From NCBI GenBank assembly GCA_973895155.1, contig OZ316895.1, positions 20,040,803 through 20,104,802 of the forward strand: DNA of 64,000 nt, in the 5' to 3' direction. The first letter of the stretch is position 1; every line of letters starts with the position of its first letter. This document shows, piece by piece, positions 22,977-46,767 of this stretch. Both the position numbers and the translations under genes were made by a program. The notes beneath the pieces are model-generated. The model was given only the letters and a program-made list of their open reading frames with translations, made no database searches and had not been told where the DNA came from. The stretch is from Marsupella aquatica. Taxonomy: Eukaryota > Plantae > Marchantiophyta.

Positions 22977-25697
22977 TCAGATTTTTTCAGTCGATTAGGA
23001 ACTCCATAGAACTTGCTTCAAGCAAAGCGAACAGCGGATGATTTCCTCTTCAAAGCGGAGCTATTGGAAGAAGATCTGCTGGCCCTGCCATTAGTGAAGA
23101 AACCATGCTGAAGCATTGATCCTCCAGATGAACAATCTGACCTTGGGGAAAGTCCACACTCCCCACACTTTCCTCCAACGTTCCTCCAATTCGTCTGTGG
23201 AGCCCTCTATGTCCACCTTTTGTCGAGTTTGGAGAATCTAGATCCGACACAGAGGAAGGAGTGGCCCAAACCTTGTTGGGATGGGACCAGCCATAGTTTT
23301 TCTTGTGCCAATCCCACTTCCAACTCGAGCACTGGTGCAGAGCCAGACCACCTTGAATCCTGCACCTCGAGATAGAGTCGTGAAACTGGCTAAATTCGTA
23401 ATGCCGATTTGTCTGGTGCTACGAATTTGGTTGTTCAGTTGTTCTTTCTCGATCCATTGGTTGTTGTCACCACTTAAGTCAGTGATTGACTTAATTCTCC
23501 TGTTGGCAAGGTATCTTCGGAGTTTGACCTGTTGCTCCATGAGATATCCTTATCTCTGAGATATAGTAGAGTTTGCTCAATGCTAAGGTGCAGCGGGAGT
23601 TGACTCCCTTCAAACTGGAAATTGAGCCTAAACACTACACCCGATGTTTATGGCAAAAAATAATGAATTATGAATTTGACAGTCCATAATTTTTCTATCC
23701 CTGACCTTATAAAATTATCCATCAAATTTTGTGAAAGTCCAGGAAGGTCGGAAGATTAGAAAGAAGCCTAACTGGAGTCCGATGTATAGGCTGAGTAGTA
23801 ATAGGTATGATAGGAGTTTTAGGAGCAGGTGCACTATTTTTGAACCTAGTGGTTAATCTGGTCCTCCTGGCCAATTACTGATTTTTTTTCTCTGTTTGCT
23901 CGGGCTTTCGGGCTCGTGGCCTTTGGGCTCCTTCTCGGGGCGGCCGCTGTTGCCCCGGGTGTTGGTCTGGGTTCCATCCCCTCCTACTTTTAAAATTAAA
24001 AAAATGGTCCATCATATTTGATATTTGAATCTTTGAGACCCCCATTTTCCAAGTGGGCTTCCTTTTCGTGAAGCTGCCCGGTCCCCGACTGCCCGCACCA
24101 TGAAGGGGTGGCGGTTCTGACAGAATCACACAACTGTAGCAGTTTGTACCGGTATCGGTCTTTGTTCCCAGATCACGGTGAATACGGTAGACTACGGCAC
24201 TGTGCCAGCAGTAACTTCTCTGGATACGGATTACGGAAGGAAACGGAACGAGACTGTTCCCATCTTTTTGTCATTCTCAAGGGGCGGGCAGTACCGTAAC
24301 GGGTCTGGCGTAAATACTTCGAACGGCTTGGTGGTGAAACATTTAAATTGTTACTGTTCACCAGTTCTGTATACATTATCCAATGTACTTATTACGTACC
24401 AAATTTCTAGCACAGAAGTCAATGAACGAAGGCTAAATAGGGTGTACTATCCTGCTTCGTGCAGTAAAATGGCGAAATATTAATTACTTTTATTCCAGGA
24501 AACAGCATACTGCCAAAATAGTAGAAAGCATTACGTGCTCGAATGGACCACCCAGATGAACCTTGAAACCTGGATAGACCAGGTTACTGTTGACGAGAAT
24601 GCGTGGAGCTTTTTGAAAGAAAATTTACTATATGAGTACACAATGAGTCCCCTAGTCTATGATTGTAAACTAATATGATACTCAAATAGAATATTTTATT
24701 GAATAATCTAGGATTTCTGCTGTCCATCTGGGATTTGCTTGTCCATCCAGGTCATCTTGTCAAACATTTAGGTCCATGGGGGCTTCAGTTTTCTAGAATA
24801 TCATTCTCCTTATTTACTTATTCTATTATGAAACGATTGTGCATAGGGAAGGATTTGGGAGGGATTATGCACAAACTATAGGGATTTGATGATATAATGC
24901 ATAAACTATAGGGAGGGATTTGCACAATCGTTTCATAATGCACAATCGTTTCATAATCCTTTCAGTTAGAGTACCTTTCACAGCTGAGCAACCTTTTCAC
25001 ATCTTAATGCGCCTCACTATATTCTCTATGTGATTTCAGGGCATTCATTGAGAATGTATTGTCAAGATTTGGGTGTCATTATGAAAATTCTCCTATACTT
25101 TTACAAAAAACAGGACAAACAAACAAAAACTTAAGCCTTTAAGTGTACTAAGGTGCTCTTACCTGAGCACTATGGCCCACAATAGCCTCTCATATATACC
25201 TAGCCCCTCAGGTAGTTTTCTATTTTTATTTCTATGGATGGTTTGGAGCCATAACCCTATGCCCCAGCCTGGCCAAGAGGTTATGACATTTTGACCCCCT
25301 CGCTAACCCACCCGGAGGTTATATAATTTCAAACACAAAGTTTTAATAAAAATAGAGCAAAGCTACACTCAGGGCTGTGCTTGTGAACCCATGACTACCC
25401 AAAGGGCATGCCTTCACTCCCTAGGGGATTATATCCCACAAGCCTAGCCTGACTACCTGTTCTTTGATCATAAATATAGGTGACTACAAAAAACCATGCA
25501 CTACTTTTTCTAAATTATTGACATTCATTTATGATTTGTCCCTGTTTCTTGTACCCCAAAGTTAAGTGAAGCAGGCCTACTTATGGTCAAGAGGCTTCAC
25601 TCTAGACCTAGACCATAAAAGAAATAGGTTTATATCCCAAATTACTACATTTAACTCTCACTAAGTGCGGGCTCTTGGGAAGACAGATCCGGCATGC

Positions 25698-25873
25698 TGT
25701 CGTGACATATAGTATCGTAGTCATAGTGTATCAAAAACATACAAGTTACCGGCAAGGCATATGTGCAAGCTGCTAGCAACCAACATGCATAGAAAAAGTC
25801 CAATCACATTCACAAGTGCCAAGAAAAAGCAAATGAAGTGGTATGTACGTAGTGGAGGTGTAAACCTCTGTAT
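25698..25873 (-). repeat. Repeat A, terminal copy (176 bp)
   Basis: Matches 26235-26410 with 4 substitutions by eye count. Confidence 0.95.
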
Positions 25874-26232
25874 ATAAAAGGCGTAAGAAAAACAATTGTA
25901 TTGAAATCAAATCAAAAACCGGCAGGATGCCAAGATCGGCCGGGAGCATCTAACGAATCACTGTGTGAATCCCGTGTACGGAACCGACGAGCACTGTCTG
26001 AGCTCTGTCAACAGCGATTCAAGAAGAACTGAAAAACCCACAAAGAAATACATGCCCTAAGCAAGCAAAGTCCTGGCATCACACTAACAAGCACATTTGC
26101 TTCAAGAATGGCCCAGACTTGCTACAAGAACATGTCGCTAACTCAGGTAGTACACTAGCCCTAACTACATACCTAGCGGGCAGGCAAGGGACATGCCGAT
26201 GTGCATAAGAGACACTGTCCCTCGGCATGACA
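25874..26232 (-). repeat. Repeat B, 3' copy (359 bp)
   Basis: Matches 35158-35516 with about 11 substitutions by eye count. Confidence 0.95.
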
Positions 26233-26234
26233 GC

Positions 26235-26410
26235 TATCGTGACATATAGTATCGTAGCCATAGTGTATCAAAAACATACAAGTCACCGGCAAGGCATATG
26301 TGCAAGCTGCTAGCAACCAAAATGCATAGAAAAAGTCCAATCACATTCACAAGTGCCAAGAAAAAGCAAATGAAGTGGTATGTACGTAGTGGAGGTGTAA
26401 ACCTCTGTAT
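26235..26410 (-). repeat. Repeat A, inner copy (176 bp)
   Basis: Direct repeat of 25698-25873, separated from B by GC at 26233-34. Confidence 0.95.
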
Positions 26411-26418
26411 CCCCCCCC
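26411..26418 (-). other. Putative polypurine tract (G8) for plus-strand priming
   Basis: C8 on the + strand directly abuts the inner A repeat, about 30 nt after the integrase stop codon. Confidence 0.6.
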
Positions 26419-26450
26419 AGACCACAGCCACAAGGAGGGCTGAAGAAAAT

Positions 26451-27770
26451 TCAGGTAGCACGTGGAGCACAAGAAGGGCAAAACCATAACCCTTCTGGCA
26501 CCTGGGTAAGTTCAGGCCAAAGGCAGAAAAGATGGTACCCTCCATTGCAATTGTCACACAGCAGCATCTGGTCAGCATCATCAATTCGCAAACACACCTT
26601 GCAAGGGTAGTCCACAGGTGGAATCCAAGTAGAAGTCACAATGGTGGGATCTAGGTTAGGCAGATGACAAGGGGCGCAATTCTTGGCATTGTCAGCAATT
26701 GTGCGCCCATCTGCCCCTTGTAACTCTAGCACTCCAGACGGTCGAATAGCTTTAACCCTGAGAATAGTTCGACTGGTAGAGGTGTCCAGGGTGTCGTTAG
26801 CTTGCCGCTGCAAGTACACAAAATCTCCCACATCAAACTTCCTGACCTTGGGCTGAAAAGTGCCCCCTCGTGTGTGTGCATAACGCAGTGTGTCCCTGTG
26901 CTGTGCAATGGCCAAATTCTCCATGGCCATGGGCATAACCCTCCTGAATAGGGCAGCCCTCTCAGAGATCACATCAGACCAAGTCACAGCTGAATCCAAG
27001 TCCACCACCTGAAGCATGTGAGCAGCAATAGCAGAAGGTGGAACTGGGTGACGACCAAACAACAAGAAGTAGGGAGAAAAGTTAGACAGTGATGCATGTC
27101 TGGACATCCTATACCCCATGGCAATGTAGGGTAAGGCCAGGTCCCAATCCTCCTTGTTTTTGGTGAGGCAGATCTTTCGGAGACCCTTCTTGCATGTCTA
27201 AACCATGCGCTCTGCCAAGCCATCTGCCTGTGGGTGATCTCGTGATGTCCGGCGATGATCAATGAGGGCCTGATCAAGTAGCTCCTGGAACTCTCCTCTA
27301 AACTCTGAGCCCTGGTCAGTGAGACATTCTGCACAAGCTCCAAAGCGGCTGAGAACTTGTTGTAGGAATGTCTGGCTGGTGCTACGGGAGGTCTTATCCG
27401 GCAATGCCACAAGTTCTATCCACTTGGAGAAATGCTCTATCATGATCATGATGTAGAGATTACCCTGAGATGTGAGGGGTAATTCTCCAGCCAAATCACA
27501 TGACCAGCGATAAAACATGCCCTGAATAGGGAGTGGATGAAGTGTGGGTTGCCGAGATATGAAAGAAGTCCTCACCCTATCACACTGTTCACACCGGGCA
27601 ATAACATCTCGAACCTGGCCATGCATGCCTCTCCAATGATAATGAGGGACCAAGAGGCTGTAAGTCCTCTTAACGCCAAAATGACCAAGCTCAGAATGTA
27701 CCTTACGGATAAGGCCAACCCTCTCATGAATGGGTGGAACCACCACTTCCCTGTCTGGCAAGCAGCGCAC
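26451..27770 (-). pseudogene. Integrase (HHCC Zn finger, DDE core, SH3-like region, C-terminal PHD finger) with one in-frame TAG at 27198-27200
   Basis: HSELGH..CEQC; SCDLAG, TDQGSEF and AERMV provide D,D,E; reading continues in frame ERMV*TCKKGLRK. PHD C4HC3: CKVC..LLCDNC..YHLFC..WFCPSC (26469-26603). Confidence 0.93.
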
Positions 27771-27785
27771 GAGATGATCTCCCTT

Positions 27786-29330
27786 TCACAAGTAGCGCTT
27801 GGACCTTTGCTGAATTTGGTCTCTCTGGGCAGTAGTAACATGTGTGGGTAACTCCCCATGCTGCAGAAATCTCAGAGTGTCGCTGTCCTCCCATATGTCC
27901 ACCACAGGTTGGTCAACAACATAGCATGGCAGCAAAGCAAGATAGGTCGATGCATGAAATGTAGGCAAGATGGAAACCTGGTCAAAATCTTGCCGTGCAT
28001 CTGAGGAATCATCAGAGGTAATCAAAGGGCTGCGGGACATAGTGTCAGCATTCTGATGTGTCACACCAGGCCTATGAGTTACCTCAAAATCATACTCCTG
28101 GAGTATGAGCGCCCAACGAGCAAGCTTGCCAGTAAGCTTGTCGTTGGTCATCAACCACTTCAAGGGCTGGTGGTCGGTGTAGAGAACAAACCTGGTCCCA
28201 TAGAGGTAGGGCCTATAATGTATGACAGCCCACACAACAGCAAGGCATTCACCCTCATAAGAAGAATAATGACTCTCTGCCTGATTGTTGCTCCTGGATG
28301 CATAGGCAATGACGTACTCTTTACCTTCCTCATCATGCTGGCCCAAAATGGCACCAATCCCAAGGGCACTCCAATCTGTGTGTAGCACAAAGACCTTGTT
28401 GAAATCAGGTCTTCTCAGCACCGGGTATTCTGAGAGCTTCTCCTTCAAAGTGGCAAATGCTGCCTCAGCATCTGTACTCCATGTCCAAGTCACATTCTTT
28501 TTCAACAAAGCATACAATGGGTGTGCAATGGTACTGAAATCTTTGATGTAGATCCAGTAGTAATTGCACAACCCAATAAAACTCCTCAAAGTGCGAACAT
28601 CGATAGGAGTGGGCATTTCCAAGATGGATACCACCTTGGCCCAGTGAGCCATGGTTCCATTTGGAAGAATGCGGTGCCCAAGGTATACTACTGATCTGAC
28701 AGCAAATTCACACTTCTTGGGGTGTATCTTTAGGTTCACCTTCTTAAGCCTCATGAATAGCTCCTCAAGGTCAAGTAGATGCTGGTCAAATCCTTTGCTG
28801 TGGACCAACACATCATCAATGTAGCGTTTCAGAAACTCAGCACCTTGAAGAACCTGGTCCATGACTCTTTGAAAGAATATGGGCGCATTCTTCAAGCCAA
28901 ATGGCATCACCAACCACTCCCATAGTTGGTTACTACCATGGAAAGCTATTTTCTTGCGGTCCTTTGCAAGCAGCAAAATCTGGTTAAAGCCTTGCCTTAG
29001 ATCCACAAGAGTGAAGATGTCTGAGTCTCCAATGCTGTCAAATAGCTCCTCTGGCCGTGGCATGGGGTACCTGTCCTGGGGTGTGACCAGGTTCAGTGGC
29101 CTGTAGTCCCCACACATGCGCTTCTCTGTCCACAATCCACTGGAATCCTTCTTTGCTGGCATCACTGTAGCTGCTGCAAAATCTGATGTAGATGGCTGAA
29201 TAAGACCAGCTTCATAGAGCTCTTGGCATCTCTCATCCACTAGCTGTCACTCATGCTTACTCAAACGGTGTCTCCGCCTGAAGATAGGTGTTTCATCAGC
29301 CAACTCAATGGAGAACTGCATAGTCTTGCA
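27786..29330 (-). pseudogene. Reverse transcriptase plus RNase H of the gypsy pol, with in-frame TGA codons at 29247 and 27786
   Basis: RMCGDYRPLN, DLRQGFNQI, MPFGLKNAP, YIDD; RNase H motifs TDWS..GAIL, YEGECLAVVWA, TDHQPL, NADTMSR. Both stops lie in conserved in-frame context (HE*QLVDE, RYL*KGDHL). Confidence 0.95.
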
Positions 29331-29784
29331 CTTACCCAAGTCCTTCATAGAGAAAGCAAACACATTCTCATGCTTGAGGAGCAAATTCAGCAGCTGGTCC
29401 TTCTGTCTTTTACTCAGGTGGTTGCCCATGATGAATGTGTAGTTGGCAACACTAGGAATAGGACCTGATGTACTCGTGCTTGAAGAGCCAGAAGTGCCAG
29501 CCTCTCCACTGTCCAAGCTACTAGCATGCTGCTGATAAGGTGATGAGGCCTCTCCAAGGCCTGCTGTATCTGTTGCTCTGGTCTGATCCACACCATGAAA
29601 CTCAGAAATAATGTCAGCCACATTACAAGGGACCTCCTCCCCCCTAACACTTGGACTGAAGTGGTGAGTGTTGGACAGAGGTAAGTGCACCTGGTCTGGA
29701 TGCCATGTAGCAGCACCATGGAGTGGTAGGGCTGGCACTCCTGATGCTGGATGAATGTACATCTGAAAAAGGATGCAAGTGACC

Positions 29785-30725
29785 AGAAGCCAAGTGAGAG
29801 CATTAAGATCCATTACCTTGCCAAGTAAAGCAGTCCTGGCTAGCCTGGTGATTTTGGTGTGACCTGTAGTACCGGGTTGGAAGCCCATAGCCCGTTCTCT
29901 CTCCTCAGGACTAGGTTCATCCCATGTACCGATAGAATGTCGATAAACCAGGCCAGAACCATCACCCTGAAAAGCATGTGCACCTGGAAAGGACACAAAA
30001 GTAGGCCAAGCAGCACGGGGCTGTCCAATGGTATTAGCTGGATACCAAGGTGCTGGCTCTTGCCGTGTAACCGGTTGGCAAGAACTGTCAGGATCCAAAA
30101 TCTGGTCCACTGTGAGGTTAGTGTCCCTAGATGTGTGGTGAAGAGCTAACTCCAACAAGGAAGGTGGTGCAATGTTAGTCCAAAAGTTACGAAGACGATG
30201 TGCATAAGAACCACAGTGCATTGCATCAATGAGAAGGGGTGGTCCCAAGTAGTGTTGGACCACACTGAAATCCTCTTTGACCTGTGGACGCTGGTCAAAC
30301 TGAGATGGAGTATTCTCAATGATATAACCAACAGCAGGATAAAGGGATTGAGCCCAGGTGAGAATCTGAACCAATGCTGTGAAAAGGCCAGAACGAGAAT
30401 CATGCAGTCCAGCACCGTGACCAGCAGCTGAAAACCCTTGGCATTCCCAACCAGCTATGATCAAATCAAGGGAGCCAAGAAGGGTTAAGTGCCAGTGCTG
30501 GACAAGCTGGATGTCTGGAGGGAAGAAAGAAAATGCAGACTTCCATGCACTATGTGGAAACTGCTGGGGAAATCGCTCGGAAAATTCCAGCAGACGGGAT
30601 TCAGCCACTTGCCTTGCACTTGGATCAATGTCCACGTAGATGTACTGCTTCACCACCATGCCAGACTGTAGGAGAGCTTCCAGGCCTGTAGAAATGCCAC
30701 CAAAAAGCTCAATCAATGTAAGGCC
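29785..30725 (-). CDS. DNMT3-like C5 cytosine DNA methyltransferase domain embedded in pol between protease and RT
   Basis: Ordered motifs I (ELFGGISTG), II (YVDID), III (DIQ), IV (DLIIAGWECQGFS), VI (IIENT), VIII (AHRLRNFWTN), IX (EERERAMGF) and X (RLARTALLGK). No stop or frameshift within the domain. Confidence 0.92.
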
Positions 30726-31079
30726 ATCTAAAAGAGGAGTCCATTTAACTGGTGCGCTCAAGATTGGGGCTATTGGCTGTCCATTGTGCTGCCCAAGGTC
30801 TTCAAACTTGCGCAATGCAGCCACCAAAGGTCCATGGGCTGCTTGGAGCTGTTGTACCACCTCTGGTTGATGATCCACGTTGCTGGAAAGTGCTGCTATA
30901 CGTGCAGCAGCATGTGCAGCAGCCACCTCATCGTCATCCTCCTCAATCCAATCTTGCAATGGGTGGTTGACATAGGTAGCTGTGTGCACTGCTTTCAACA
31001 CACAGTGGTGAGCCATAGGTATATGGGCACCATGCAAATCAAGTGGAATGTAGCCCAAGTGTGAGCCATCAGTATGCCA

Positions 31080-31430
31080 ATCAACTCTGTAGTATGCATG
31101 CTCATGCCAGTTGTCAATGGTAAAACCTGGTGGGAACAAAGCCTCCTGGCCAATGAGCACATCATACGTAGTGGCATTGGTAACCAAACATCTGACTGGG
31201 AAATGCAGTTCCTGATCTGTACCTCCATTAAAAGTGAGAGTGAGTAAAGTAGAACTCTCACCCAGCACATCCTCCACAGTGCCACTAGCAGCCCGAATGT
31301 GCCACTTGGATTGCTGTAAATGATCAGTCAACAGTCCCATCTTCTTGGCAAACTGAATGCCCAATATCACTGGTTGAGCACCTGTGTCTAGCATGACCAC
31401 CTGAGGAGTGTGACCCTCCAACTTGACCAC
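31080..31430 (-). CDS. Retropepsin-like aspartic protease domain (part of ORF 31985-29247)
   Basis: VMLDTGAQPVIL active site, IRAASG flap region and YDVLIGQEAL. Confidence 0.85.
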
Positions 31431-32039
31431 TGAATTCCTGTTGTCAACAATGGCAATGGTGGTGGAAACTGAAGTCCTGTCAATAGGCACCACTCTCGGC
31501 AAATGATGAGGTACCTTGTGAAGGGAGTTAGTGTCCACGGTCTTTCCACTCAACAACATAGCCAGGAAAGATGGAGCAGCATGACCAGAATCAAGTGTAG
31601 CTCTGGTCACACAATCAGCAGCAATCGGTATTGGGGCAGCCAAACCAGTGGAAACATGTAAAGGAGAAGAAAAAGGTCCAGTATGTACATGAGATTGGAC
31701 CTCCAAAACCGGTGTCACAGGGGTTGATGAAGAATGCAGTGAGCCCTCTAGCGCTCTAATGATAGCTCTAGCATCCAGCTGTAAATCATGGCAACTGAAA
31801 AGTGGAGTTGTAAGAATCCTTTGTGCCATACCGGAGGTGAAATGCTCAAGCAGCTCAGGAGAAACAACTCCCTGTGAAATGTTAGCAGCACCTGGTGGTG
31901 GAATGGATGTAGCTGCAGCTCCCTCCCCCCTCGCCAACAAGGTGCGCTCTTCAGCAAGTGTGAGTGGCTGAAAAGATTGGGGCATGACAGCCCGAGCGCC
32001 CCTGGCTCTAGTCAGAGGACCGGCAGCAAGACCATCAGC

Positions 32040-33581
32040 CTATACAATGCGGCGTGTGGGAGCAATACGGGAGGCAGCACTGGCCTGCTGGTAAGCAAAA
32101 CAGGAAGGGCAGAATGAATCTGAAAATTCTGCTGTAAGGCCAGGCTGTGGAGCAGAGGACAGCACACACTCACCCATATGAGCATCAAATGGTAAGCCAT
32201 AGAAAGAGCGGGGTAGAGGTGCTGAACTGTCAGCGGTGCCTGGGCCAGGGATGGGTTGCACGTGACCAGCCGGTTGAGAAGGACCAGCAGAGGCAGTGGA
32301 CTTGCCTTTGATGTTGGCAAGTTGGGCACGTAAGGACTCAACCTCATGAGTCAGAGACTGGAGTTGAGTTGCCTGTGCGTTATGAGCCTCCTTCTGAGCT
32401 GGTTGCTTCTGTGGCTGCTTGGGCAATTTGTTAGCACCGGGTGCTTTGCCACTGGAAGGAGGAGCAATGGATGTAGTAGGAGCCCTCCTAGCTGGGGGGG
32501 GAGTGGAAGCAGGAGCAGGATGAGGGGCCTGCTGTCGTAGCCGCTTCCGCTCTGGGAATTTGGCAAAACAAACTGCCTCCAAGTGACCCACTTTCCCGCA
32601 AAAATCACAAGACAGGTCCTCAGCAACAATATCACACTCATTAGCCTTATGATTGGGGTTACCACAGTAGTTGCAAGATGGCAGCATGAAAGCAGCATGG
32701 GCTGGCTTGGTCTTGGAACCATACTGTGGCACACGAGAAGGAGTGGCCAGTGTAGGGGTAGCAGCCTGGTACCTGGATTGCGGTGGACGCGCAATATTGG
32801 CCTCATAATGTGCATGGGCCAACTCAAGTTTCTCAGCAGTGTCATAGACATTGAGCAGGGTGTAGCTGTCTCCAAACTCTGAGAATACTTGCTGCAACAC
32901 TTGCGAATGGAGAGCTGGTGTGCCCTCCAATGCGCGAAGATAGCGATGAGCAGCCTCCAGGTCAGTGATGCTCTGGGTGTCCTCCTTCAGCTTGAGAAGC
33001 CGGCGATACATCATCTTCAAGGTTTCATCGCGCTGCCTCACAAAGGTGGCCAACTGCATGATTGTGTCAGCACTCTTGATTGGGAATTCCAATTCAAGAA
33101 CCTGGAAAAACTCAGCCACTGGATCAGCAAAGGCAGGGGAATCAATGGTGGGAGAAATGCCTGATGTAGCCTGTGCCAAGATAGTGGGAGTAACGGGCGC
33201 AGTGGTAGGAACTGGAGTAGGAGGGGAAGTGGCAGGAGCAGCAGCATGGGCTGCAATGGCATTCTGTAAGGCCAATTGTGAGGCTGCCGCAATTGCACTG
33301 GCATAGGTAGGGTTAGGCAACTGTGTGACAGCAAGCAGCCGTTGAGAATGCTGCTCATACACATCCAAAGCCTCATGGTGCACATACCTGGCTAGCTGCT
33401 TAAATGCAAAAGCATTTGTGAAATTGCTGCCGTACTTCAACTCCAATGCGTAAACGATAGTGTAGAAAGTGGATTTGAACTCACGTAAAGAGACAGTGCC
33501 TGGCCGCCCGCTGAAGCGCTCAATGCGGCCAGATGAGTGGTTGGCATCCATGCTGTATGTCGGTGAAGCAGGAACAACCAC
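32040..33581 (-). CDS. Gag with two CCHC zinc knuckles, in frame with pol across a single TAG; may originally have started at ATG 33817 (frameshift near 33600)
   Basis: IERFSG capsid-like start; CNYCGNPNHKANEC and CDFCGKVGHLEAVC knuckles; Pro/Ala-rich linker. After the TAG, 18 sense codons lead in frame to ATG 31985. Confidence 0.85.
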   Translation of the reverse strand: MVVPASPTYSMDANHSSGRIERFSGRPGTVSLREFKSTFYTIVYALELKYGSNFTNAFAFKQLARYVHHEALDVYEQHSQRLLAVTQLPNPTYASAIAAASQLALQNAIAAHAAAPATSPPTPVPTTAPVTPTILAQATSGISPTIDSPAFADPVAEFFQVLELEFPIKSADTIMQLATFVRQRDETLKMMYRRLLKLKEDTQSITDLEAAHRYLRALEGTPALHSQVLQQVFSEFGDSYTLLNVYDTAEKLELAHAHYEANIARPPQSRYQAATPTLATPSRVPQYGSKTKPAHAAFMLPSCNYCGNPNHKANECDIVAEDLSCDFCGKVGHLEAVCFAKFPERKRLRQQAPHPAPASTPPPARRAPTTSIAPPSSGKAPGANKLPKQPQKQPAQKEAHNAQATQLQSLTHEVESLRAQLANIKGKSTASAGPSQPAGHVQPIPGPGTADSSAPLPRSFYGLPFDAHMGECVLSSAPQPGLTAEFSDSFCPSCFAYQQASAASRIAPTRRIV

Positions 33582-34254
33582 GGATGCAGAAGGGGTAAAA
33601 ATGGCAATGAAGTGATAGCAGGCTTCGGGGTAGTGGTGAAGCGACCACCAAATGTAGCAGAAGGATTGCGTGGTGTGGGTGCTGCTGTTGTCTGCTGACG
33701 TTGCTGAAATTTCCGAGACTCCAATGAAATTGGCACCAATGGTCGTGGATCACTCCGTAAATGGTACCTGGGTGTCGGTGGTGATGTGCTGCTACCTCCT
33801 GGCTCGTCTGCTGACATGCTGTGTGGCAGTACCCGATGTACTCAGGTAATGTACAAAATGTATAAACATGTTGAAGAACCGTCAACCTCAAAAATCCGTC
33901 AGAGAAAAAGGACCCTTAAAAACGTGAAGACATTGGGTGCCCACTTAATTAAGTGTATAAACACGGGGCCCCGTTAAGTGTATACGTCGGGCCCCGATGT
34001 GGACCCGGGAACTAGCAAGCTCGACGGAAAAAAGGCCGGGCGCGCGTCGGCAGTGAAATCGTCCTCACGGGAACCGGCCGAGTGTGTAAACACACCCAGG
34101 GCACGGCACCCTATGCACAGCCCAAGGAGGCCCTATGCAGGTCGTTGTGAGGCGGAAGGAAAGACGACGGCCGAAAAGAAAAGAGAGGCGGATTACGAGG
34201 CGGAAAGGAGGCGAGGCGGGAGGCGAGGCAAAAGAAACCTGGCCAAACCGGGCC

Positions 34255-34660
34255 CTCTTAATGGCATGAGCCCTCCATAGGGCTTCGTGCCCCACCTTAT
34301 GTGCTCCCGAAAAGGGGCTACGAACATACTCCCCCCTCCTCTCCTGCAATGCAATTTGGGCCTCGTGCCCTGGCAGAAGACTCCCGTGAGAGGAGTCAAG
34401 TGTACTCCCCCCTCTTCAATGCTGACAGTGGGCTCCGTGCCCTGCAGGGGGACTCCTGAAGAAGGGAGTCGTGTGTGAACTCCCCTCCCCCTCCTTTTAA
34501 TTGCTGCTTAGGGCCTCGTGCCCTCTCCTGCGCTCCTGCCTTGGTTTCGTCTCCCCCTGCTTTAATGCTGCTTCGTGCCCTGCAGGAGACTCCCCCTGCT
34601 TTAATGTGTACTCCCCTCCCCTCCTCTTAATGCGCCATAGGGCCTCGTGCCCTCCATCCT
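34255..34660. repeat. Degenerate tandem repeats in the retroelement 5' leader
   Basis: About 6 copies of GGG(C/T)(C/T)CGTGCCC interspersed with CTCCCCCTC..TTAAT. Confidence 0.65.
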
Positions 34661-35145
34661 CTCTCGCTTATGCTCGGCCACGGCAGGAAGCAAAACGAAG
34701 GAATAGCGAGGCGACGAGGCAAAAAAAAGAGGAGTAAGAAAGGCAGAAAGAAAAGGGGTGTGCGGCCCTATGCCGTTGGGAAGTAGCGCGCAGTGGCCTA
34801 GGCAGTCCGGTGGTGGTCGCGCGGCAGCCGTGGCCGGGAAATGGCCATAAAAGCTAACGAAAAAGGGGCCCCAAACTCCCAAAGGGTTGCGAGTGAGGGC
34901 GCAGCGGCCTGTGCAATCGGCAGCAAGTCGTCGATGTAGGTCACAAAGAAGGTTGCGGCCGGAAAAAAAACCCGGGCCCCTTGTTATTTGTATACACTTA
35001 AGTATACAGTATACACATAACACCACAATAAACCCATAACTTTTAACTCGTCACTCCGATGTCCGTCAAAGAAATTGCAATGGCTTCACCAGAAAGTGTC
35101 GAAATCGTCACAAACAATCTTCTTCCCCTCACCACTATCTCGACG

Positions 35146-35157
35146 AGTTCTTCTTGA
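35146..35157 (-). promoter_or_regulatory. Putative self-priming PBS (Tf1-like), complementary to the predicted transcript 5' end at 35314
   Basis: 35146-35159 AGTTCTTCTTGAAT is a perfect 14-bp inverted repeat of 35301-35314 ATTCAAGAAGAACT and abuts the end of repeat B. No TGG-starting tRNA PBS at this position. Confidence 0.7.
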
Positions 35158-35516
35158 ATAAAAGGCGTAAGAGAAACAATTGTATTGAAATCGAATCGAA
35201 AACCGGCAGGATGCCAAGATCGGCCGGGAGCATCTAACGAATCACTGTGTGAATCCCGTGTATGGAACCGACGAGCACTGTCTGAGCTCTGTCAACAGCG
35301 ATTCAAGAAGAACTGAAAAAACCACAAAGAAAGACATGCCCTAAGCAAGCAAAGTCCTGGCGTCACACTAACAAGCACATTTGCTTCAAGAACGGCCCAG
35401 ACTTGCTACAAGAACATGTCGCTAACTCAGGTAGTACACTAGCCCTAACTACATACCTAGTGGGCAGGCGAGGGACATGCCGATGTGCATAAGAGGCACT
35501 GTCCCTCGGCATGACA
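35158..35516 (-). repeat. Repeat B, 5' terminal copy (359 bp)
   Basis: Direct repeat of 25874-26232; not followed by repeat A. Confidence 0.95.
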
Positions 35517-37748
35517 ATGCACTAAACCAGGTGGTGCGTTCCTTGATAAGTTAGCACACACCCCCTAAAACGTGCACTTATTGATATGGGCTGCTCTATC
35601 AGTGAGTAGCCCCTTACCTCATATCCCTGCCCTCATTCTTTACTCTACTAAGAATGGGTAATCCTGCATTTATTAGTAAAATGCTATTTCATGGCTTTGT
35701 GCTTTTACCCATAAGAGCAGACATACACTTATTGAGGGTAAGCGCTTATGAAGTTGTCTTTTAGGAAAATGATTGAAGCCCTGTGTGCGCTTACAACATA
35801 CGCTTAAAAAGCACTTATCCCGTGTTAGAAAATAGAGTAGGAGAGGATGCCCTGGGCTAATCAAGGGTAAGCGCTTATGGAGTCTGAGCTTAGACAGAGC
35901 CCACTATAGTAAGATAACCCCCTTTGGACCGTGGTTTACATTAATCTAACCCATTCGATGGGTTGGGGTACCTTTCACAACCTGAGGTATGGGATGCTTT
36001 CTGTTCCCTCCACTCCGTTCCTGGTTTAGACAGAGCTCGAGATTGAAACTCCGTGAAATGAGAGCTTGGACAATTCGGGATGCATCAAATTCAAGCAGCG
36101 AATCGTTGAAATTGGAGAGAGAGAGCATGGGAAATTGGAATGGAGATGGAGGCGACAGTTTATGGTTGGGAGGCGCCAGATAGACAGACGGAAACATCAG
36201 TTCGACTACGGAGCTGGGGAATTTTGGTTGTGAGTGATTCTAATGTGCGGCCCGATTGAAGTTTGGAGGTCCTTGAAGAAAGGGTTTCACATACAGGTAC
36301 TAAAATTGGATCATCGTCGAGAATTGCTTGTAGTTGGGAGTGAGCTAGAGGTGCTCCTTTCTTCCCCTTGTGCACCATCATTCTTGAGACCCACAACTGG
36401 ATGACTAGATAGACCCACAGCTGAATGAATAAGTAGTCGAAATTCTGGATGCAGTTTGCAACCACTCGCTCGTCAGCATTGCCGCCCAAGCTTCGTAGTG
36501 TCATTTCTTACTGACCTTGGGTCTGCTGCTGAGCTGAGCTGGTCTTGTTCTCTGAGCTGGTCTTGTTCTCATTGAACTACTTTCATCAGCTGATTTACGG
36601 GCCTCACAAGCCAAAGCCAAATCTATGAATGAATATTTTTCAAGACTTTTATCGCTAGTTGGCTTTCCATCCCCTCGCTTCAATATGAGCACTTCAAGCG
36701 TATGGGCAGAAGATTCTATTTTTCTGCAATGGGTGAGATAGGAAGGACCAATATCTCGAGACCTACCAGATACCATGGGTCGCCCACCCGTGTGGACACT
36801 AAGCCCTCTGGTAGACTGGGGTATGAAGCCCTGAAGTACCCTGTAGTCGGAATTCTCGCTGACGGACTACGATCGTGTCAACAGAAGCTCGAGACAGCTA
36901 TCCCTTGCTTGAACAGACGAAACTGAATGTTTAAGGTTCAATCAAATTCTATGTAAATTGGGTGGTTTTAAAAGTCGTTGACCTTTCGAAAAGTGAGCTT
37001 CTTTGGTGGAATTTTAGTTCCCGAGACAACCGCCCTGGGTAAGAGGCCGAAGTCCAAGATAATCTCTTACTGTACGCACAATCAAACCTAATGATCAGAC
37101 AGGTAGAATGTCCTTCAATCTCGAACACTAGTGGGACCAAAGAATTACTTAGCGCTGTGAACTCTAACTTGTCCTCGTTCTTGAACATGCTGGATAGTGG
37201 GACCACAAACCCTCCTTCTGACTCTAAAAGCGCATAGCTCTGAATTGGGCCAATCTCGCTCTTCATCACCAGTGAGTTATTAATGTTCGGTGAAGTACAG
37301 CGTAAAGTGAAGCGCGGAAGAAATGCTCATCTGTACTTTCGCAAAAGAAGATGGGTTACTAGAGTATCCTTTAGATTTGGTCAGGTTTCAACCAAAGCAA
37401 AGATCTTGCCGTTCTCTCAAAACAAGACTCCGCACGCGTTTAATTGATTTTGAATTTAAAGTACATGATTACGAAAAATCTGAAGGAAAGCTGGTGTACC
37501 AATATGTTTTCATCACCTCTTCAGTTTTTGCAGTTTTTGCAATTTTTGGTTTTGGTTTTGGTTTGGACTGTGTCAATTTTGCTCGAGGAGTACTGCATGG
37601 TTTGGTTGCGGTGAGACAGCAGATTGAGACTGATGCGGTGTAACTCCAACTTTTGTGCACATTGTCAGGACGGAATCGAATTCAGGTGTTGTGGCTCTTT
37701 TTGGTAGTTGGTACGGACCCTGTTCGCCGGATTTCTGAGCCCCTAGTC

Positions 37749-40700
37749 ATGAAGGAGCAATATGATTACCTATCCTTGGGGCAGGCAGTTCTGCGCAAAG
37801 GAGAGGAAGTTAACTTTTACGGTGCTGTTAGCGAGTACGAGCATCCGAAACCAACTCGTGGCTCAGGTGAGCTAAGTTTATTCGCTTTTTAATTTGAAGT
37901 AGTCCACATTGGATGGGTCTTCAGGTCTGTTTTGCGCTCTCATGCTCTTCATGTTTCTACATTGCTTAATATTCTTATTGCGACCCTGGTTTTCTTGCTT
38001 TAAACCCTAAAACCTTTAAACTTTTGATAGGCTTCTTGTCAACAGCTTAATGATTTCTGTTGCAACATAAGTCTAGGACTGTTCAGGGCTAGATGAGCTG
38101 AGAGAGTGTCGAGGTCAGTGTATGCATTATCAAGGCTTTGTTATGGCGCCACATCGAACTCGTGGACGCTTTGAGCTTATATTGACTAATTCATCGAAAC
38201 AATTCCCGACAGATGTGATCTGTACCATGAGTGTGGTGGACATGACCTACGACAATCCTGGCTTGAGGTTACTAATCTTTGCATCAGCAGCGAATTGCCC
38301 ACTAGTCAAGTCTATTGGTGATATAATTCGAGTCCATCGGGTTGAGGTGAGGCAGTCACGATGAACAGACTCTTTGCAATCTGATATGTTCCTAGAGCAG
38401 TGCTTTCGAACCCCTTTGTGTGAACAGAACGGCGTTTAATGCCGTGTAAAAACCTCAGTATATGCGTAGCTTAGCGGGATTGTTCTTCCTATATATCCCC
38501 CATCTATAGCCTTATGCGGTTTGCAACGAGATACCTCTGCCTAGCTCCTGAGGATTTACTGGACAGAGGCGTTAGTCATATTTTGCAAACGCAGGTTTTG
38601 TCTCTCTTCTAAAACTTGAGCAAGAAAGCTAGGTAGTCGTTCAGGGTGTCTTCGTCCATTGTCTGAAAAGGCAGAAGGCTCTTGCCCTGCATTCAGGAAG
38701 GACCTGTCTATCAGGCTGCCATCTTCCGGAAATGAGTGCCGGCCTTGCTGGATGCCGGTCAAGGATGTCTCTTGCTCTCTTTCTACTTGATAGCTAGTCT
38801 CTTGATTTGCCCTGTGGATTCCAATCCCATGGCCTATTTAGGTCTCTGTGGAATTTAAAATAATGAAATTGGTTCATTCATCCTTCCTGACGATGGAAGA
38901 AAAGATTTTACCGTTTTGTTAGTTCCGTCCGTCCAAGTCTACCCTGACTAGAGTTTGTCTCGTGTCAGAAGGAAGATGTCACCTGAGGTGTCTCCTTGTT
39001 AACGCATGGCTGAAACTAGAAATGAAGAACCACACATATATTGAATAGCGTCTTTGCTCAATTTCTGCTATATGTTCTTATTTAATTTGGGGAGATTTTT
39101 GACAGATGGGAGACTACAAGGGAGAGCCGCAGGCAATTGCTAAAATCAGCCGGAAGTCTTCCTACATCCTATTTCAGGGAAAGAATGGAAACGGTTATGA
39201 ACCCTACCAAAAAGCACATGGTACATTCTCGTTTGAGCCACATGATGAACAAAGAGTTGACGTCATGCGGAAGTGGATCGAATCTCATCCTCTGTACACG
39301 CGTGAGTTTACTTGACCCTACTGTACTTATTTGAATAGAAGAAAACTTCTCAGCTTCCTAGTTCTCAATCGAAATGATTCCCTTTAGCTTGTTGTAGCAC
39401 CAAGCATTCCACTGTTACGTATTAACAGAAGAGAAAGGTTTGATGACGGAACTAGGGTAATGAAACATATTCTGATTGGGCTTGTTTGGACCTTGGTCAA
39501 CTGATCGTTTTTCTTTGCACTTTTCAGGCGTAAGCGATTATTTAGTTCCTATAAGTGGAATTAAGGATTGCTCTTATTTTGATTTGTGCTGTAAGGTGCA
39601 AGATCTAGCTTTGACACCTGTTACTCCTTGAATGCTTAAATTTAAGTCAAATGTGAGAATTGAGAACGAGGCGGGATGAGTAATTGTGTGCCCAGACTAA
39701 ACAACCTTACACGCTCAGATATAATGTTGTCAGGATACCCAAGGAAGTAGAGTAACTCACCCTTCGCTGGAATCATCGCCAGATCCTTTATGTGGTGGAA
39801 AGAACACCAGAGCACTCCACCATAATCTACGTTTGGGATGGCACTGATGCAGTGCCGAGATTCATATCAATACTGTATGTTTGTTCTTAACTGGCTACTC
39901 ACATAATTCTTCGCTGCATTTTATTTTGAGCTTATGGGATAGAGTCTTACCAATCTTTGAGATACGCTGACCTCCTGCGCTACCTTTTGTTCAACTTGAC
40001 TTTGGCCCTCGTCACTCCTTACAATTTGTCTCGCTTGTATGTAGCAAACCAGAAACAGATGAAGATTTTGAATCGGAAGCAATTTGCACAAATGGTTATC
40101 CACAATCTCTCCTGCCCAGAGATGTACTTTGCGACCTCCCCCCATTGGGTACTGTGCTACCCATCATACAAGAGATCCAGTTGGACGATCTACCCGGACA
40201 ACTGCCCCAGTGTGGTGATTGGGTGAAGTTTCGGAATCTTGCATGTCGCAGTCGAGCAGGCATATCAGAAGCAGTATTTAGGCGTGAGAGCAAAATTAGC
40301 CTTCTCTCAAAAGACACTCAATTGGTTAAGAACTGTGAAAGGTACGCTCTTCCCTGCATCTAGTCTTGCTCTTGACAAAAGAATCAAGTTTAAGGATAGT
40401 TGGTAAGAGGAGCTTTATCAACCTCCAAGCCTTCAAAATCATAGTGCTTGCTTGACATTGTGGCTCTCCAGAATGCTCATGAAAGCCCACAGCCCTTGAC
40501 TTATGGTTGCAGTCTTTATGAAGTACGGATCCTTTCAGAGCAGGGCCGCCTTCCACAATCATCTCCGCAGCCTCCACAGTTATTGCAGTCATTGACAGGT
40601 AGGCCTTGAATATAGAGTGGGGAAATTGCTGCTAATATGACGATGCAGTAGAAGGTTCTGATCCTACTTTGTTCCCATTCCAGTGACAGACTATGAGCAT

Positions 40701-41482
40701 ATGCCCTTCTCAACCCTGAGGGAGGTTCTGGCACACCCACAGGTAAGGAGTCATCCTTTTAGATTGCCTTCTGGCTTACTCCTTAGACATATGAGGCCAT
40801 ATGTTATCCTGAATTATCGGTTCAGATTTCTCATATCTCCAATTCACTCTGATGCTATTTATGTTCCGTCTGTCTCTCAGGTAACTCAGAAGTTTCGCTG
40901 CCTCGTGCGAGTGATATCTACATGGCCATCAGAAGTTGTAGATTTCTGTGAACCTGTGACAAACCAAGAAAAGACCCCTACAACCGAACTTTGGAATCCC
41001 CAATTTGTATATACAGTCAGGTTGACTCTTGAGGATCCTACTGCCAGGCTTCACGCATACTTATATGACGAAGATGGGGTACGTGTCTCTCAATTTAATC
41101 CTCAATGTTGGTCAGTCAAGGATCCATTTAAGCCTGTTGGTTTCCGTTGATTTTGTCGCTAAAGATAAGTGCAACAGCGCTAGATCGGTAATTCTGACGT
41201 TGATATCTATCGTTCAATTCACCATCCATGGTTTTTGACGCGCAGGCAAAGTTTTTCAATGGCCACCCTCCTGCAGATTTACATGACTACGGTTCGATTG
41301 TAGGAGCTCTTCAAAGAAAGGTGCACAGGCTGTTAGGGGTTAGATTATCCGAAGAGAGTGGACTCCCGTCGTACCGTGACCCACCATGGATAAAGTGTTG
41401 CATCAAGTCCTACTACACTGACAAATCAAAACCTTGGGAAAGCAGATGCTTCAGAATATTCGGAACCACTTATCCTGGTTAA
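37749..41482 (+). CDS. POT1: Protection of telomeres 1 (OB-fold single-stranded telomere-binding protein); exons 37749-37866, 38213-38346, 39106-39301, 39528-39595, 39783-39874, 40045-40341, 40513-40598, 40684-40742, 40881-41078, 41246-41482
   Basis: VNFYGAV..PKPTRGSD, P.VKSIGDIIRVHRV, YFDLCCK, YVWDGTD, LPPLGTVL, GDWVKFRN, LTLEDPTARLHAYL, WIKCCIKSYY..FRIFGT; GT-AG introns in consistent phase. Confidence 0.93.
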
Positions 41483-43427: not shown

Positions 43428-46182
43428 CTAGGAGGTTCTCTGCTTAACTCGTCGACCATTCGCATCGGCCCCGTCTGAGAACTGGCCCCATACAATCCTG
43501 TTTCTAGAAAATGAACCAACTTCCTCATCAACGCCTGCAATTGTTCTCAAAAGTTCGGATTGCAGGGATGGACAACTGTCCTTCAAGTACTCAAAGCCGT
43601 CCGATTGCATCACCGCTGTCAGAAGAAACAGAAAGACGATGAGATGTACAATCAAAACACTCGGACTCGGGCCATGTAAATATATGTAACGAGAAGAAAG
43701 AGAGTATCAGATATGGAGACTGAGGCTCACCCGGAAGATTGGAAGCCGCGAATTTCAGGCAAACGGATTTCAACTGCGATGCATGGTGTTGCTCTGCAAG
43801 AGCAAGAGTCGTGGCAACTGTGTCTGTGCTCACGTCTTCACACAACTTCGATTCACACAGCAACCTCAAACGGTCAAGCCCGTATCGATCTGCTGCGGCT
43901 AACAAATGCTGGGCCATGAGTGTAGAAGATGAGGAAGATGACCCCGTGACCTCAGTGGTATCGGGAAGTACGTCTCTGTAGATAAAATGCAACATGGCCT
44001 GCATTCACAGTAGGCATTCCCTCAGAACTGGCCCACAAGGACAATCAAATTGCTCCCAACAATTTGGCTGATAGAGATGGCTGCAGGCTAAGAACAAGAC
44101 TCGGCCACCAGATCTCTGAATTAACCCAAATATATAACCTCAGATACTGCAGGAAGCTTCAATTCATAGATACTGACTGCACAGTTTGCATTTCTTTAGC
44201 GGCATTTCGAATGGTCAGTACTCCAATCAAGGAACATCGTAAACTAGCGCACACATTATGGTAAAACATGAAATCCTAAATACCACAGATGTTCACAACG
44301 AATTAATAGGACGGGTTAATCCGTTGCGCAGCACTCCACATCATGTAGCAATGTTGCGAATAGCACACGACGGAACTGAAGAGCCCAGTCGTGTTACCCA
44401 CGAAATACCAGATACTAGAGATAGATGTCAACAACAAGTGAATTTAACAGATTGGGATGGCTGCTTTTAAGCTGCATTCAGTATAATACGCCACTAACCA
44501 TCAACACATGACGGAAACTCGAGAACACAGCAAGCTACGCATATAAACCCGTTATTTCAGATAGATATCAACAATCAACAAGAGTGATTGAATGACACAA
44601 CTCATTCCGCATGGCATTCACTACGGCGTCCAATACAACGAAAACGCGAGAAAACAGTCAGGTCACAACTGCAATCCATATATCACAGATGAATGTCCAC
44701 AGCCAAACAATTAACTGCATTCAGTATGATAAATCATGTTGCACCAATCAACACACAACGGGAACAGATACCAGTAAATAAACACATACGAACCCAATGA
44801 TGCTGATGTTTGTGTTGTTAAGTACCTTAAATACTGGAGCTTCCATATCTTTTATATGGATCTTGCCGCTATTCCGATCGCGCATTAGCCCAAAGAGTTG
44901 AGCCTTGAAAACAGGAGATCTGGCAGCCAGCACCAGCTTGTGAGCTTGGAAAGTCTCCCCGTCAACTTCAAAAGTCACGTCACCAAAGGTAGCATCACCT
45001 TCGCCGCTATCTAACAACGCACCGAAATGCTGACCCAAATCAGGCTCCGGCACCGAAATAGTATACAACTTCGGACTCTGTGTCGCTGACACAACTACCC
45101 CAACCGTACACGTGATAGACAGGGTGTCATTCTTCAAGAAATCAGATGTCTCTAATACTGCTCGCCGAAAAAAACGCTTATATCCCCTGGATCATGAGAC
45201 ACAGTAAGGACAATCACAAGATTAGAGAACTGCTCGTCTTTCGCCGATAACGGACGTAATCTGCAAATAGTCAGTCGGTAGGGAAGGAAAATGCTCTCCC
45301 CTACATAACGTAAGCTAACATTGAAAAGACGTCTCCGCCGGCAGAGAAAGCAATCCCCCGCAGATAACTCGAATAAGGTCAAAATCTGCACAACTCTTCC
45401 CTTTGGACTCTTCTCTGGCGGCAAGGAAAAATAGAGAGACCAGAAGGCCTGAGACAGAAATAAAACAGTATTGCTTAACTAGTACTCTTCTGCAGATAAT
45501 GGAGGTTGCAAGTAAGTCCTACGGTGAGTAGTGGTGAGAAAACAGTTCCCACAGAAATCAGACTGCATTGCAAAGTCAAGTCCGACGGCAGGGAAGAAAA
45601 TAATCGACAAACTGATCAAACGACAACAAATGTCTACGCCAGTACTTTCTGAAGACTAGAAAGATGATCAGAGAGAGCAGAGGGCCAACAATAACCACCG
45701 CCAACGGAAGCCAATAATGCAGGAACAAGTGCGAGAGTCACGAAAGAGAGAGTCAGATTGGGAGAGGTGCCAACATACCACATGCTACCGCGGTACTTAA
45801 GGGTGTAAGGGCCACTTTCGAGAGAGCGGTCGAAGTGGCTGTGCACCTTGTGCTTGGCCTTGTTGCTCTGATCCAAAAGAGTCAACTCGAAGAGCGCACG
45901 CACGTCCGTGCCCTCGCTCGCAAGTGCAATAAAAACAGAGACATAAAGCGAATTGTCCTCCGCGTTCTTTCCGTCGGGATAGAAGTAGATGGCCCATTGA
46001 TAACCACCCACGGTGAAGCTCTCGCTCGCGATATATTTCCCCACGCCCATCCCCTTCGCGAGAGAATAGCCATTTATTGTGAAATAGTGAGACCCGTTCA
46101 CAGTTTCAGTAACGCTGCGGGACCGAGTTCCTGCTCCCGCGCCCGCACTGCTGTCCTGCAAGGCCATCGGCGTCCGTGCCAT
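43428..46182 (-). CDS. BPM: BTB/POZ-MATH (BPM) CUL3 substrate adaptor; exons 46182-45779, 45186-44826, 43998-43731, 43615-43428
   Basis: MATH: [38 protein letters not shown]|[11 protein letters not shown]: [25 protein letters not shown] and [23 protein letters not shown]-terminus ends GRRVKQR. Confidence 0.96.
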
Positions 46183-46767
46183 GACCTTTCTTCCTTCATC
46201 CCCGCTCTAACTCCATTCCCGTCCCCCTCCCCCCCCCCCCCCTCCCTGTCCTTCCTCTCCCCACGAACCCTACTCTCTTGTCTCTCACTCTCTACCTCTC
46301 TTTTTCTCTTCTCTCCTACTTCGTCGCCCACAACTTCCACCTATGCTTCCTGCACCTCTAATCGCCACAGCCACAGAACACAACGCCTGACCTAATCTCT
46401 AAAAAATCGACCTCCAGTCCCCCGAATTCATTCCGATCGTTCGTGTCACCCTGTTCGTCTACCAATCACCTACTCCATTTCCATTCACCATCAATCCCCC
46501 CCTCCTCCTTATTTTCCGCCACTCCTCCTTGCGTCGTCAATCCCTCATCCCCCTCGTGCTCGATCAATTTGTGATCTCCCTGCTAGCCGATTGATTCTCC
46601 CTATTAGAACTATTGTCCGCTATTCGTCTCCGTGCCTGCCTCGATTGCCTCTCGACGCTTCTTCTGTTTTTCTCCTTCCTGTCCACTGTCTCTCGTCCGT
46701 CTCGTCCACACCCACCCGCTCCGGGTGGAGCAGGAAGGAAGTGTGACTCCTCGACTCGACTCCAATA

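Follow-up and report, generated by a model that had tools for sequence, protein, structure and literature searches.

A split-repeat Ty3/gypsy element of the liverwort Marsupella aquatica with a candidate self-primer at its repeat boundary

A Ty3/gypsy retrotransposon in the liverwort Marsupella aquatica carries a single complete long terminal repeat (LTR), and that one lies internally, which raises the question of how reverse transcription of such an element is primed and which of its repeat boundaries are the DNA ends made by reverse transcriptase (RT). The element lies in a stretch of 64,000 nucleotides (assembly GCA_973895155.1, contig OZ316895.1, positions 20,040,803 to 20,104,802 of the forward strand) that was analysed as a whole and is referred to here as the window. 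A first-pass annotation of the window had read a 14-bp inverted repeat at the boundary of one repeat segment, B, as a tRNA-independent, Tf1-like self-priming signal that defines the true LTR end and supports a permuted-LTR model. The layout of the element is as follows.

25698..35516, minus strand: whole Ty3/gypsy element with TG...CA termini, in the sense order B - internal - A - B - A
35517..35520, unstranded: target-site duplication on the 5' side, 4 bp, ATGC on the plus strand
25694..25697, unstranded: target-site duplication on the 3' side, 4 bp, ATGC on the plus strand
35158..35516, minus strand: 5' B repeat (downstream U3, R and U5), starting with TG, with 35158 at its 3' end as the predicted RT-defined end of the LTR
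26451..33749, minus strand: gag-pol reading frame with zinc knuckle, protease, C5 DNA methyltransferase, RT, RNase H, DDE-type integrase and PHD finger
26411..26418, minus strand: polypurine tract of eight G residues (G8), abutting the internal A at the predicted RT-defined LTR start
26235..26410, minus strand: internal A repeat (upstream U3)
26226..26241, minus strand: internal attachment-like site at the A-B joint, made of the A end, a GC spacer (26233-26234) and the TG start of B
25874..26232, minus strand: 3' B repeat, which with the internal A forms the one complete LTR, 537 bp
25868..25879, minus strand: B-A joint, candidate LTR-LTR junction, a blunt exact join of the primer-defined end and the polypurine-tract-defined start
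25698..25873, minus strand: terminal A repeat, ending in CA

The coding region has the Ty3/gypsy domain order protease-RT-RNase H-integrase, and the best solved-structure relative of its RT is Ty3 RT (E 4.6e-66). Both an RNase H domain and an integrase core (rve) were found in the pol of the element, and the best named protein match comes from another liverwort, Calypogeia fissa (83%). Behind the integrase, the window element has a PHD finger and no chromodomain. The gag-pol frame is broken by four in-frame stops, at 32040, 29247, 27786 and 27198. TG...CA ends and a target duplication within the 4-6 bp of Ty3/gypsy elements are likewise present, but the two complete LTRs that such elements have between primer site and polypurine tract are not: the only complete LTR is internal, half copies stand at both ends, and a full 5' LTR was found in 0 of 22 relatives. 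Split direct repeats are a trait of the DIRS, PAT and Ngaro elements, for the last two of which a circular intermediate is the usual model, but the tyrosine recombinase of those elements had no Pfam match among the 25 other open reading frames of at least 90 aa.

The two B copies (35158-35516 and 25874-26232, 359 bp) are 96.9% identical, with 11 differences in 359 positions, and the two A copies, aligned over 178 bp (25696-25873 and 26233-26410), are 97.8% identical, with 4 in 178. At the A-B joint of the window, A ends in TA where the relatives and a distant family have CA, making a joint of the CA-GC-TG type. In contigs from four public runs of two studies, many unrelated flanks abut the edge at 35516, and empty-site contigs from the same runs enter 35517 from sequence resembling the left flank; because of these varied flanks and empty sites, we regard the element ends and the 4-bp duplication as real. 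The element is nested in another repeated sequence, with 10-20 contigs per run showing the empty site (about 25650-25697 and 35517-35800), and the right flank at 35517-35800 is covered by further copies in the contigs. Its leader contains short degenerate tandem repeats at 34290-34660 (families D12 and D13), and the leaders of relatives are also repeat-bearing.

The layout recurs beyond this copy. We collected 80 metagenome loci with 56-83% RT identity and mapped authentic A and B copies onto all 80. At the 5' end, 22 distinct insertions in normal orientation all begin with B alone, and none has A upstream (one of them with only 181 nt of room). The arrangement A-B-A closes the 3' end of 14 independent insertions, and a single A that of 19 loci; the single-A elements are compatible with 1-LTR circles or with later A-A recombination, and short-read collapse is also possible. 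Among the 17 relatives with TG..CA termini and both ends present, the 4-bp duplication is perfect in 11, matches at three of four bases in 4 and is absent in 2. A distant family is represented by a contig of 53% RT identity, L083, that combines a DNA methyltransferase (DNMT) and PHD finger with a G7 tract, a CA-GC-TG joint and a TATA-like box, and by its sister contig L085, which also has a G7 tract and carries A-B-A ending in CA ahead of a flank. Recurrence in 14 independent insertions and in this distant family rules out the layout as a one-off accident.

Several loci were left out of these counts: the duplicates L006 and L008 (which appear to equal L007), L032 (equal to L031) and L013 (equal to L012), the loci L017 and L077 with rearranged or cut tails, and those too short to reach an end. 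L016 shares a 3' flank with L014, and the two were counted once; the 5' B of L014 (L014:3512-3802) is inverted relative to the element, marking a rearranged copy, and was also set aside. The distant contig L083 (G001:C201) is filed in a cyanobacterial assembly with at least seven eukaryotic Ty3/gypsy contigs in all, one of them bearing a chromodomain, and we regard these as contamination there; besides L083 they are C16, C91, C92, C123, C148 and C259. No relative turned up when viral contigs were scanned at the protein level, and two hits of a DNA pattern scan in viral contigs were rejected as chance, L081 being a phage coding region and L082 having no split repeats.

Three features at the 5' B boundary bear on priming.

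35303..35314, minus strand: candidate self-primer, the predicted first 12 nt of the transcript, with the start placed by TATA spacing in relatives
35146..35157, minus strand: putative primer-binding site of 12 nt, complementary to the predicted RNA 5' end, abutting the B boundary and apparently not tRNA-like
35102..35199, minus strand: predicted U5-leader stem, about 35164-35199 with 35102-35136, a fold prediction that is not conserved in other families

The inverted repeat is as perfect as first described: 35146-35159 matches the reverse complement of 35301-35314 at every base, the pairing can be extended on neither side, and on the minus strand the inner arm does begin with an A preceded by a T-run and a C. 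The B boundary splits the outer arm, leaving 12 of its 14 bases (35146-35157) outside B and 2 inside, and the bases 35301-35302 add two nucleotides of complement that reach into the LTR end. The length of the repeat is not the point, because exact inverted repeats of at least 12 bp within 400 nt number 14 across the 64 kb of the window, 6 of them at least 14 bp long. It is the position that stands out. When B was shuffled with dinucleotide composition kept, 11 of 20,000 shuffles gave a comparable match, defined as a perfect complement of at least 12 nt, anywhere in B, to sequence starting 0-5 nt past the B boundary; the corresponding figures are 1 in 5,000 for the distant family, and 2 and 0 in 5,000 for the relatives L010 and L070. 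Neumann et al. (2019) call an element self-priming if at least 10 bp of its LTR are complementary to sequence 0-5 bp past the LTR (PMC6317226), and here we find 12 nt at offset 0.

Signs of a tRNA primer were sought in several ways. The triplet TGG is absent from the 3 nt before and the first 8 nt after the boundary in the window, and the boundary is also without TGG in all three families; the 64-kb window contains no tRNA genes. In a weak test against 14 phage-locus tRNAs, the best match to the primer site spans 6-7 nt, and an Rfam search over the site returned no credible family, only a chance-level match (E 0.71).

Contigs of the window family in the public runs show how the site varies. 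Some copies lose the match at 35145-35146, the far end of the primer site, and 0 of 14 common variant sites fall within the 28 arm bases (p 0.07, not significant). Contig depth over 35146-35516 is about 10 times or more that over the leader at 34970-35139 (depth here is not copy number), and some contigs diverge right past the 12-nt primer site. The depth step and the divergence may reflect solo repeats, or a non-autonomous partner with the same B and primer site.

Covariation of the two arms, proposed earlier as a check on the pairing, is present in the form of two compensatory changes and of a separate 12-mer in the distant family. Pairs 5 and 10 are changed on both sides between the window and the 22 relatives, and L083 has an unrelated 12-mer that is fully paired with its own site only (12-13 nt). 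Duplex energies are -15.4, -13.1 and -14.6 kcal/mol for own-family combinations, against -0.7 to -8.6 for cross-family ones. Across the 22 insertions with distinct flanks, all of them old, mutated copies, pairing is kept in 242 of 264 base pairs with G-U counted (12 of 12 pairs in 7 insertions, 11 in 10, 10 in 3 and 9 in 2), a count that leans towards the model because the primer site was located by a sequence motif and the arm start by a TATA-distance rule. A cross-family DNA alignment left the arms out of register, and the pairs were counted from scripted anchors. Within-family covariation at pair 11 is borderline (Fisher p 0.052). The proposed pairing of the predicted first 12 nt of the transcript with 35157-35146 is supported by exact complementarity in the window and by covariation in the relatives.

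The position of the inner arm fits a transcript start in the relatives: the TATA box lies 32 nt before the arm start in 17 of 22 (range 29-33), and the TATA-like box of L083 lies 29 nt before it. A TATA box at -32 is missing from the window family, for which a start at 35314 is predicted from the spacing in the relatives. We hold with high confidence that the 12-base site and its complement in B constitute a tRNA-independent self-primer.

Folding of the RNA gives a picture that depends on length. When the RNA is folded only to the end of the primer site, the primer helix has a pairing probability of 0.90-0.98 in four sequences (the window, L010, L070 and L083). With 30-150 nt more downstream RNA, the nested fold of the window loses the helix (probability 0.001-0.13), and with 150 nt of downstream RNA its probability is 0.0 in L010 and L070, while it is kept in L083. 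The competitor in the window is the U5-leader stem, which is predicted there, partial in L010 and L070 and absent in L083; stem and primer helix fit together only as a crossing, pseudoknot-like structure, an arrangement that the folding program cannot score. A U5-IR stem reportedly adjoins the primer duplex in Tf1-type elements. Folded plainly, 35120-35314 does not outscore shuffled sequence (z 0.44), and the primer helix is missing from the result. The primer arm of L083 also pairs, as one side of a perfect 12-bp hairpin, with sequence immediately upstream of the predicted start (L083:7228-7255); this could conceal the arm in the RNA's 3' copy and not at the 5' end.

If the site primes reverse transcription, the B boundary should be an end made by RT, and here evidence independent of the motif is available. 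In the six relatives that hold both B copies, B-to-B homology ends at the primer site, exactly in four and at most 2 nt away in two, so that the coincidence of B boundary and primer site claimed for the window extends to 6 of 6. In the window, boundary and primer site also coincide, but the proposal that priming begins exactly at 35158 stands only to about one base, because B-A joints with one extra primer-site base exist. This extra base, the first of the primer site, was seen in one insertion (L014/L016) and in one window-family contig, and fits a retained or shifted primer base. Allowing for that single base, an RT-defined end at 35158 is very likely.

The other repeat joints can be read in the same light. 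The B-A joint of the window (25874/25873) is an exact blunt join of an end of the 35158 type and an end of the 26410 type. Of the 14 insertions, 6 have it exact and 8 show it altered, by losses of 1-3 nt, about 147 nt or more than 200 nt (with microhomology) or by single extra bases, and this imprecision is likely what end-joining would leave. Among the same 14, the polypurine-tract joint, a G-run followed by an ATACA-type start, is preserved in 12, and all keep the CA-NN-TG spacing at the A-B joint. Divergence between A copies is 0.085 within an element and 0.12-0.13 between elements, and private changes are common to both copies; because of this closeness and these shared changes, A appears to be re-copied in each cycle. 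An element's own second A copy is its nearest neighbour in only 5 of 12 cases. Three of the 14 insertions (L003, L033 and L040) have an internal A without a 15-nt unit that is present in the terminal A, a difference that is unexplained by plain copying. The A end consists of two tandem 15-nt units, each ending in CA; both copies in L063 have one unit, and in L012 a single unit closes A, where the duplication is perfect. For the permuted-LTR model, the self-priming signal offers support in that the RT-defined end differs from the TG..CA end, but a circular intermediate is not proven by the signal alone.

The mechanism that we favour as a whole, and consider probable, combines self-priming, end-to-end joining of the cDNA and opening by integrase at the internal CA-GC-TG. 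Transcription would start at 35314, and the RNA would anneal through its first 12 nt to 35157-35146; RNase H may then cut past nucleotide 12, by analogy with the Tf1 cut past nucleotide 11. Minus-strand DNA would start at 35158 and plus-strand DNA past the G8 tract at 26410, two boundaries that are both visible in the sequence, and the resulting linear cDNA would have the order A-B-internal-A-B, with ends that are not TG..CA. End-joining of these cDNA ends would leave the B-A joint. Integrase would cut on both sides of the GC spacer in the A-B site of the left LTR, and insertion with a 4-bp duplication would give B-internal-A-B-A. We also lean, with somewhat less assurance, towards joining before integration. 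A free circle has two equal A-B sites and should also yield the mirror layout B-A-B-internal-A, but that layout is seen 0 times against 7 among complete elements (p 0.016).

The absence of the mirror layout, together with the unequal A copies in 3 of 14 insertions, is why a second reading stays alive, although we think it unlikely. Here the element would self-prime but form no free circle: integrase would cut the linear cDNA in the left LTR and insert both cut ends, and the host would then join the original cDNA ends in the chromosome. The product would be the same B-internal-A-B-A with the same imprecise B-A joint, and a linear molecule is asymmetric and could account for the missing mirror layout (0 of 22); linear DNA is, moreover, the proven substrate of retroviral integrase (PMC11054761). 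Against this, integrase would have to make a chromosome break that is repaired between the correct two ends, and the preference for the left site would still need a reason.

A third reading, which we judge very improbable, is replication in the manner of PAT and Ngaro elements, in which RNA would extend to the terminal A, the internal A-B joint would template the circle ends and the B-A joint would be inherited, leaving the inverted repeat and G tract as relics or with another role. The repeat order indeed matches the one drawn for split-repeat DIRS-type elements (legends of Fig. 1 and Fig. 4c in PMC5890265), and the 3 of 14 insertions whose internal and terminal A differ in length would suit it. 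However, in three families the repeat boundaries coincide exactly with primer site and G tract, the primer shows covariation, the B-A joint varies by insertion, the A copies are homogenised within elements, and the element has a DDE-type integrase and 4-bp duplications, with no tyrosine recombinase among the 25 other open reading frames. About as improbable is that a host tRNA fragment or other small RNA primes and that the inverted repeat serves as RNA structure in packaging, translation or the control of transcription. Competition between the primer helix and other folds in longer RNA would suit this reading, but the site differs in each of three families and in each is complementary to that family's own predicted 5' end, with no TGG at the boundary, a best match of 6-7 nt in the weak comparison with 14 phage-locus tRNAs and no Rfam family over the site.

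Self-priming of the favoured kind has precedents, and we compared the element with them. In Tf1, the RNA's initial 11 bases pair with the primer site and cleavage by RNase H falls between 11 and 12 (PMC7175516, PMC4600332). As in Tf1 and Tf2 of Schizosaccharomyces pombe, in Tj1 and in the Tf1/sushi group generally, the RNA is predicted to begin with a complement of the site directly past the 5' LTR, and the element shares with Tf1/sushi the Ty3/gypsy domain order. Those elements have no tRNA site, and the boundary here showed no TGG and no more than 6-7 nt of match to the 14 phage-locus tRNAs. It differs from Tf1 in pairing over 12 nt where Tf1 uses 11 and in having split repeats where Tf1 has two full LTRs, and from Tf1/sushi in bearing a PHD finger and a DNA methyltransferase and no chromodomain. 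Primer cleavage is demonstrated in Tf1, whereas for the window element it would follow by analogy.

A quick, midpoint-rooted tree of RT-RNase H with 35 rows, which contained no Tf1 or Tcn1 sequence and omitted L098 as too short, places the window element and L083 among 21 rows that form a green-plant clade (SH-aLRT 99), together with proteins of Klebsormidium, Closterium, Marchantia, Calypogeia, Haematococcus and Tetrabaena, and sets the window element apart from three chromovirus-type rows (99). Among the tree rows, a Pfam chromodomain occurs in L095 only. The Tf1-like reading of the first-pass annotation is supported as to mechanism: in its priming the element likely resembles Tf1, but it lies outside the Tf1/sushi clade in this tree and probably does not belong to that group. 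Near the clade are three Gypsy proteins (P0219, P0225 and P0226) that have PF05869, which we take to be an adenine methylase family, in place of the cytosine methylase.

In plants, self-priming has been predicted for 12% of elements, in Tcn1 and TAR, and Tcn1 is present in mosses (Neumann et al. 2019, PMC6317226). The accessible text of that study treats Tcn1 and TAR as ordinary two-LTR elements, and the window lineage is not among the self-priming groups that it names. Phygy, a moss non-chromovirus considered for its 4-bp duplication, was ruled out because it uses tRNA-Trp, found in 81% of elements (PMC6317226), and the idea that Troyka elements carry three LTRs was not borne out in the available part of PMC12440569.

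Closer in layout is KnitGypsy-Dnmt3 of Klebsormidium nitens, whose repeats are described as arranged in a DIRS-like way in the legend of Fig. 4c of de Mendoza et al. (2018, PMC5890265); the accessible text of that paper does not give a primer, an attachment site or a mechanism. The window element resembles it in carrying a cytosine methyltransferase within a Gypsy pol and in its DIRS-like repeat order, and Klebsormidium pol proteins belong to the same clade as the window element. With PAT and Ngaro it shares the order X-internal-Y-X-Y, in which the internal joint mirrors the two ends (layout per PMC5890265); unlike those tyrosine-recombinase elements, it combines a DDE-type integrase and TG..CA ends with 4-bp duplications, a primer site and a polypurine tract. 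The open-access literature yielded no explanation of how elements of this clade are laid out or primed.

The joining steps have parallels too. Integration of retroviral DNA from 2-LTR circles was proposed by Panganiban and Temin in 1984 and later rejected (recounted in PMC11054761), and circularisation of retrotransposon DNA driven by end-joining has been described in Drosophila (bioRxiv 10.1101/2022.09.25.509424). Like the 2-LTR-circle model, the favoured mechanism has integrase act on a symmetric CA..TG joint inside closed DNA; unlike it, the attachment joint is encoded within the LTR and is separate from the joint of the cDNA ends.

Extended to the green-plant Gypsy clade with PHD finger and DNMT, the mechanism seems to us evenly poised between right and wrong. 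The clade, in liverworts, other bryophyte-type hosts, charophytes and perhaps chlorophytes, would have uncoupled the ends made by RT from the ends used by integrase, self-priming independently of Tf1/sushi, closing its cDNA through host end-joining and using a DDE integrase at an internal CA-GC-TG. Textbook accounts have LTR elements integrating from the ends of linear DNA, with circles leading nowhere. If the mechanism is true, a DDE integrase uses in nature an internal, pre-joined attachment site, probably on joined cDNA, and the element presents a natural, obligatory form of the circle route rejected for retroviruses; the repeat order of KnitGypsy-Dnmt3, noted without explanation, would be explained as well. 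Self-priming itself is already known and a new lineage is a modest addition, though the self-priming proposed here may be an independent origin outside chromoviruses. Primer site and polypurine tract together would serve as a ruler that fixes the ends of RT-made DNA, which differ from the ends of the inserted copy, and this suggests that LTR-finding programs would miss or mis-trim the clade.

Elsewhere in the window, host genes encode a MATH-BTB protein (43591-46206, minus strand) and a POT1A-like OB-fold protein (40662-41150, plus strand). Other inverted repeats, with nested arms at 51315-51665, 98-nt arms at 4238-5191 and arms of 19-20 bp at 24825-24957, are possibly small DNA transposons.
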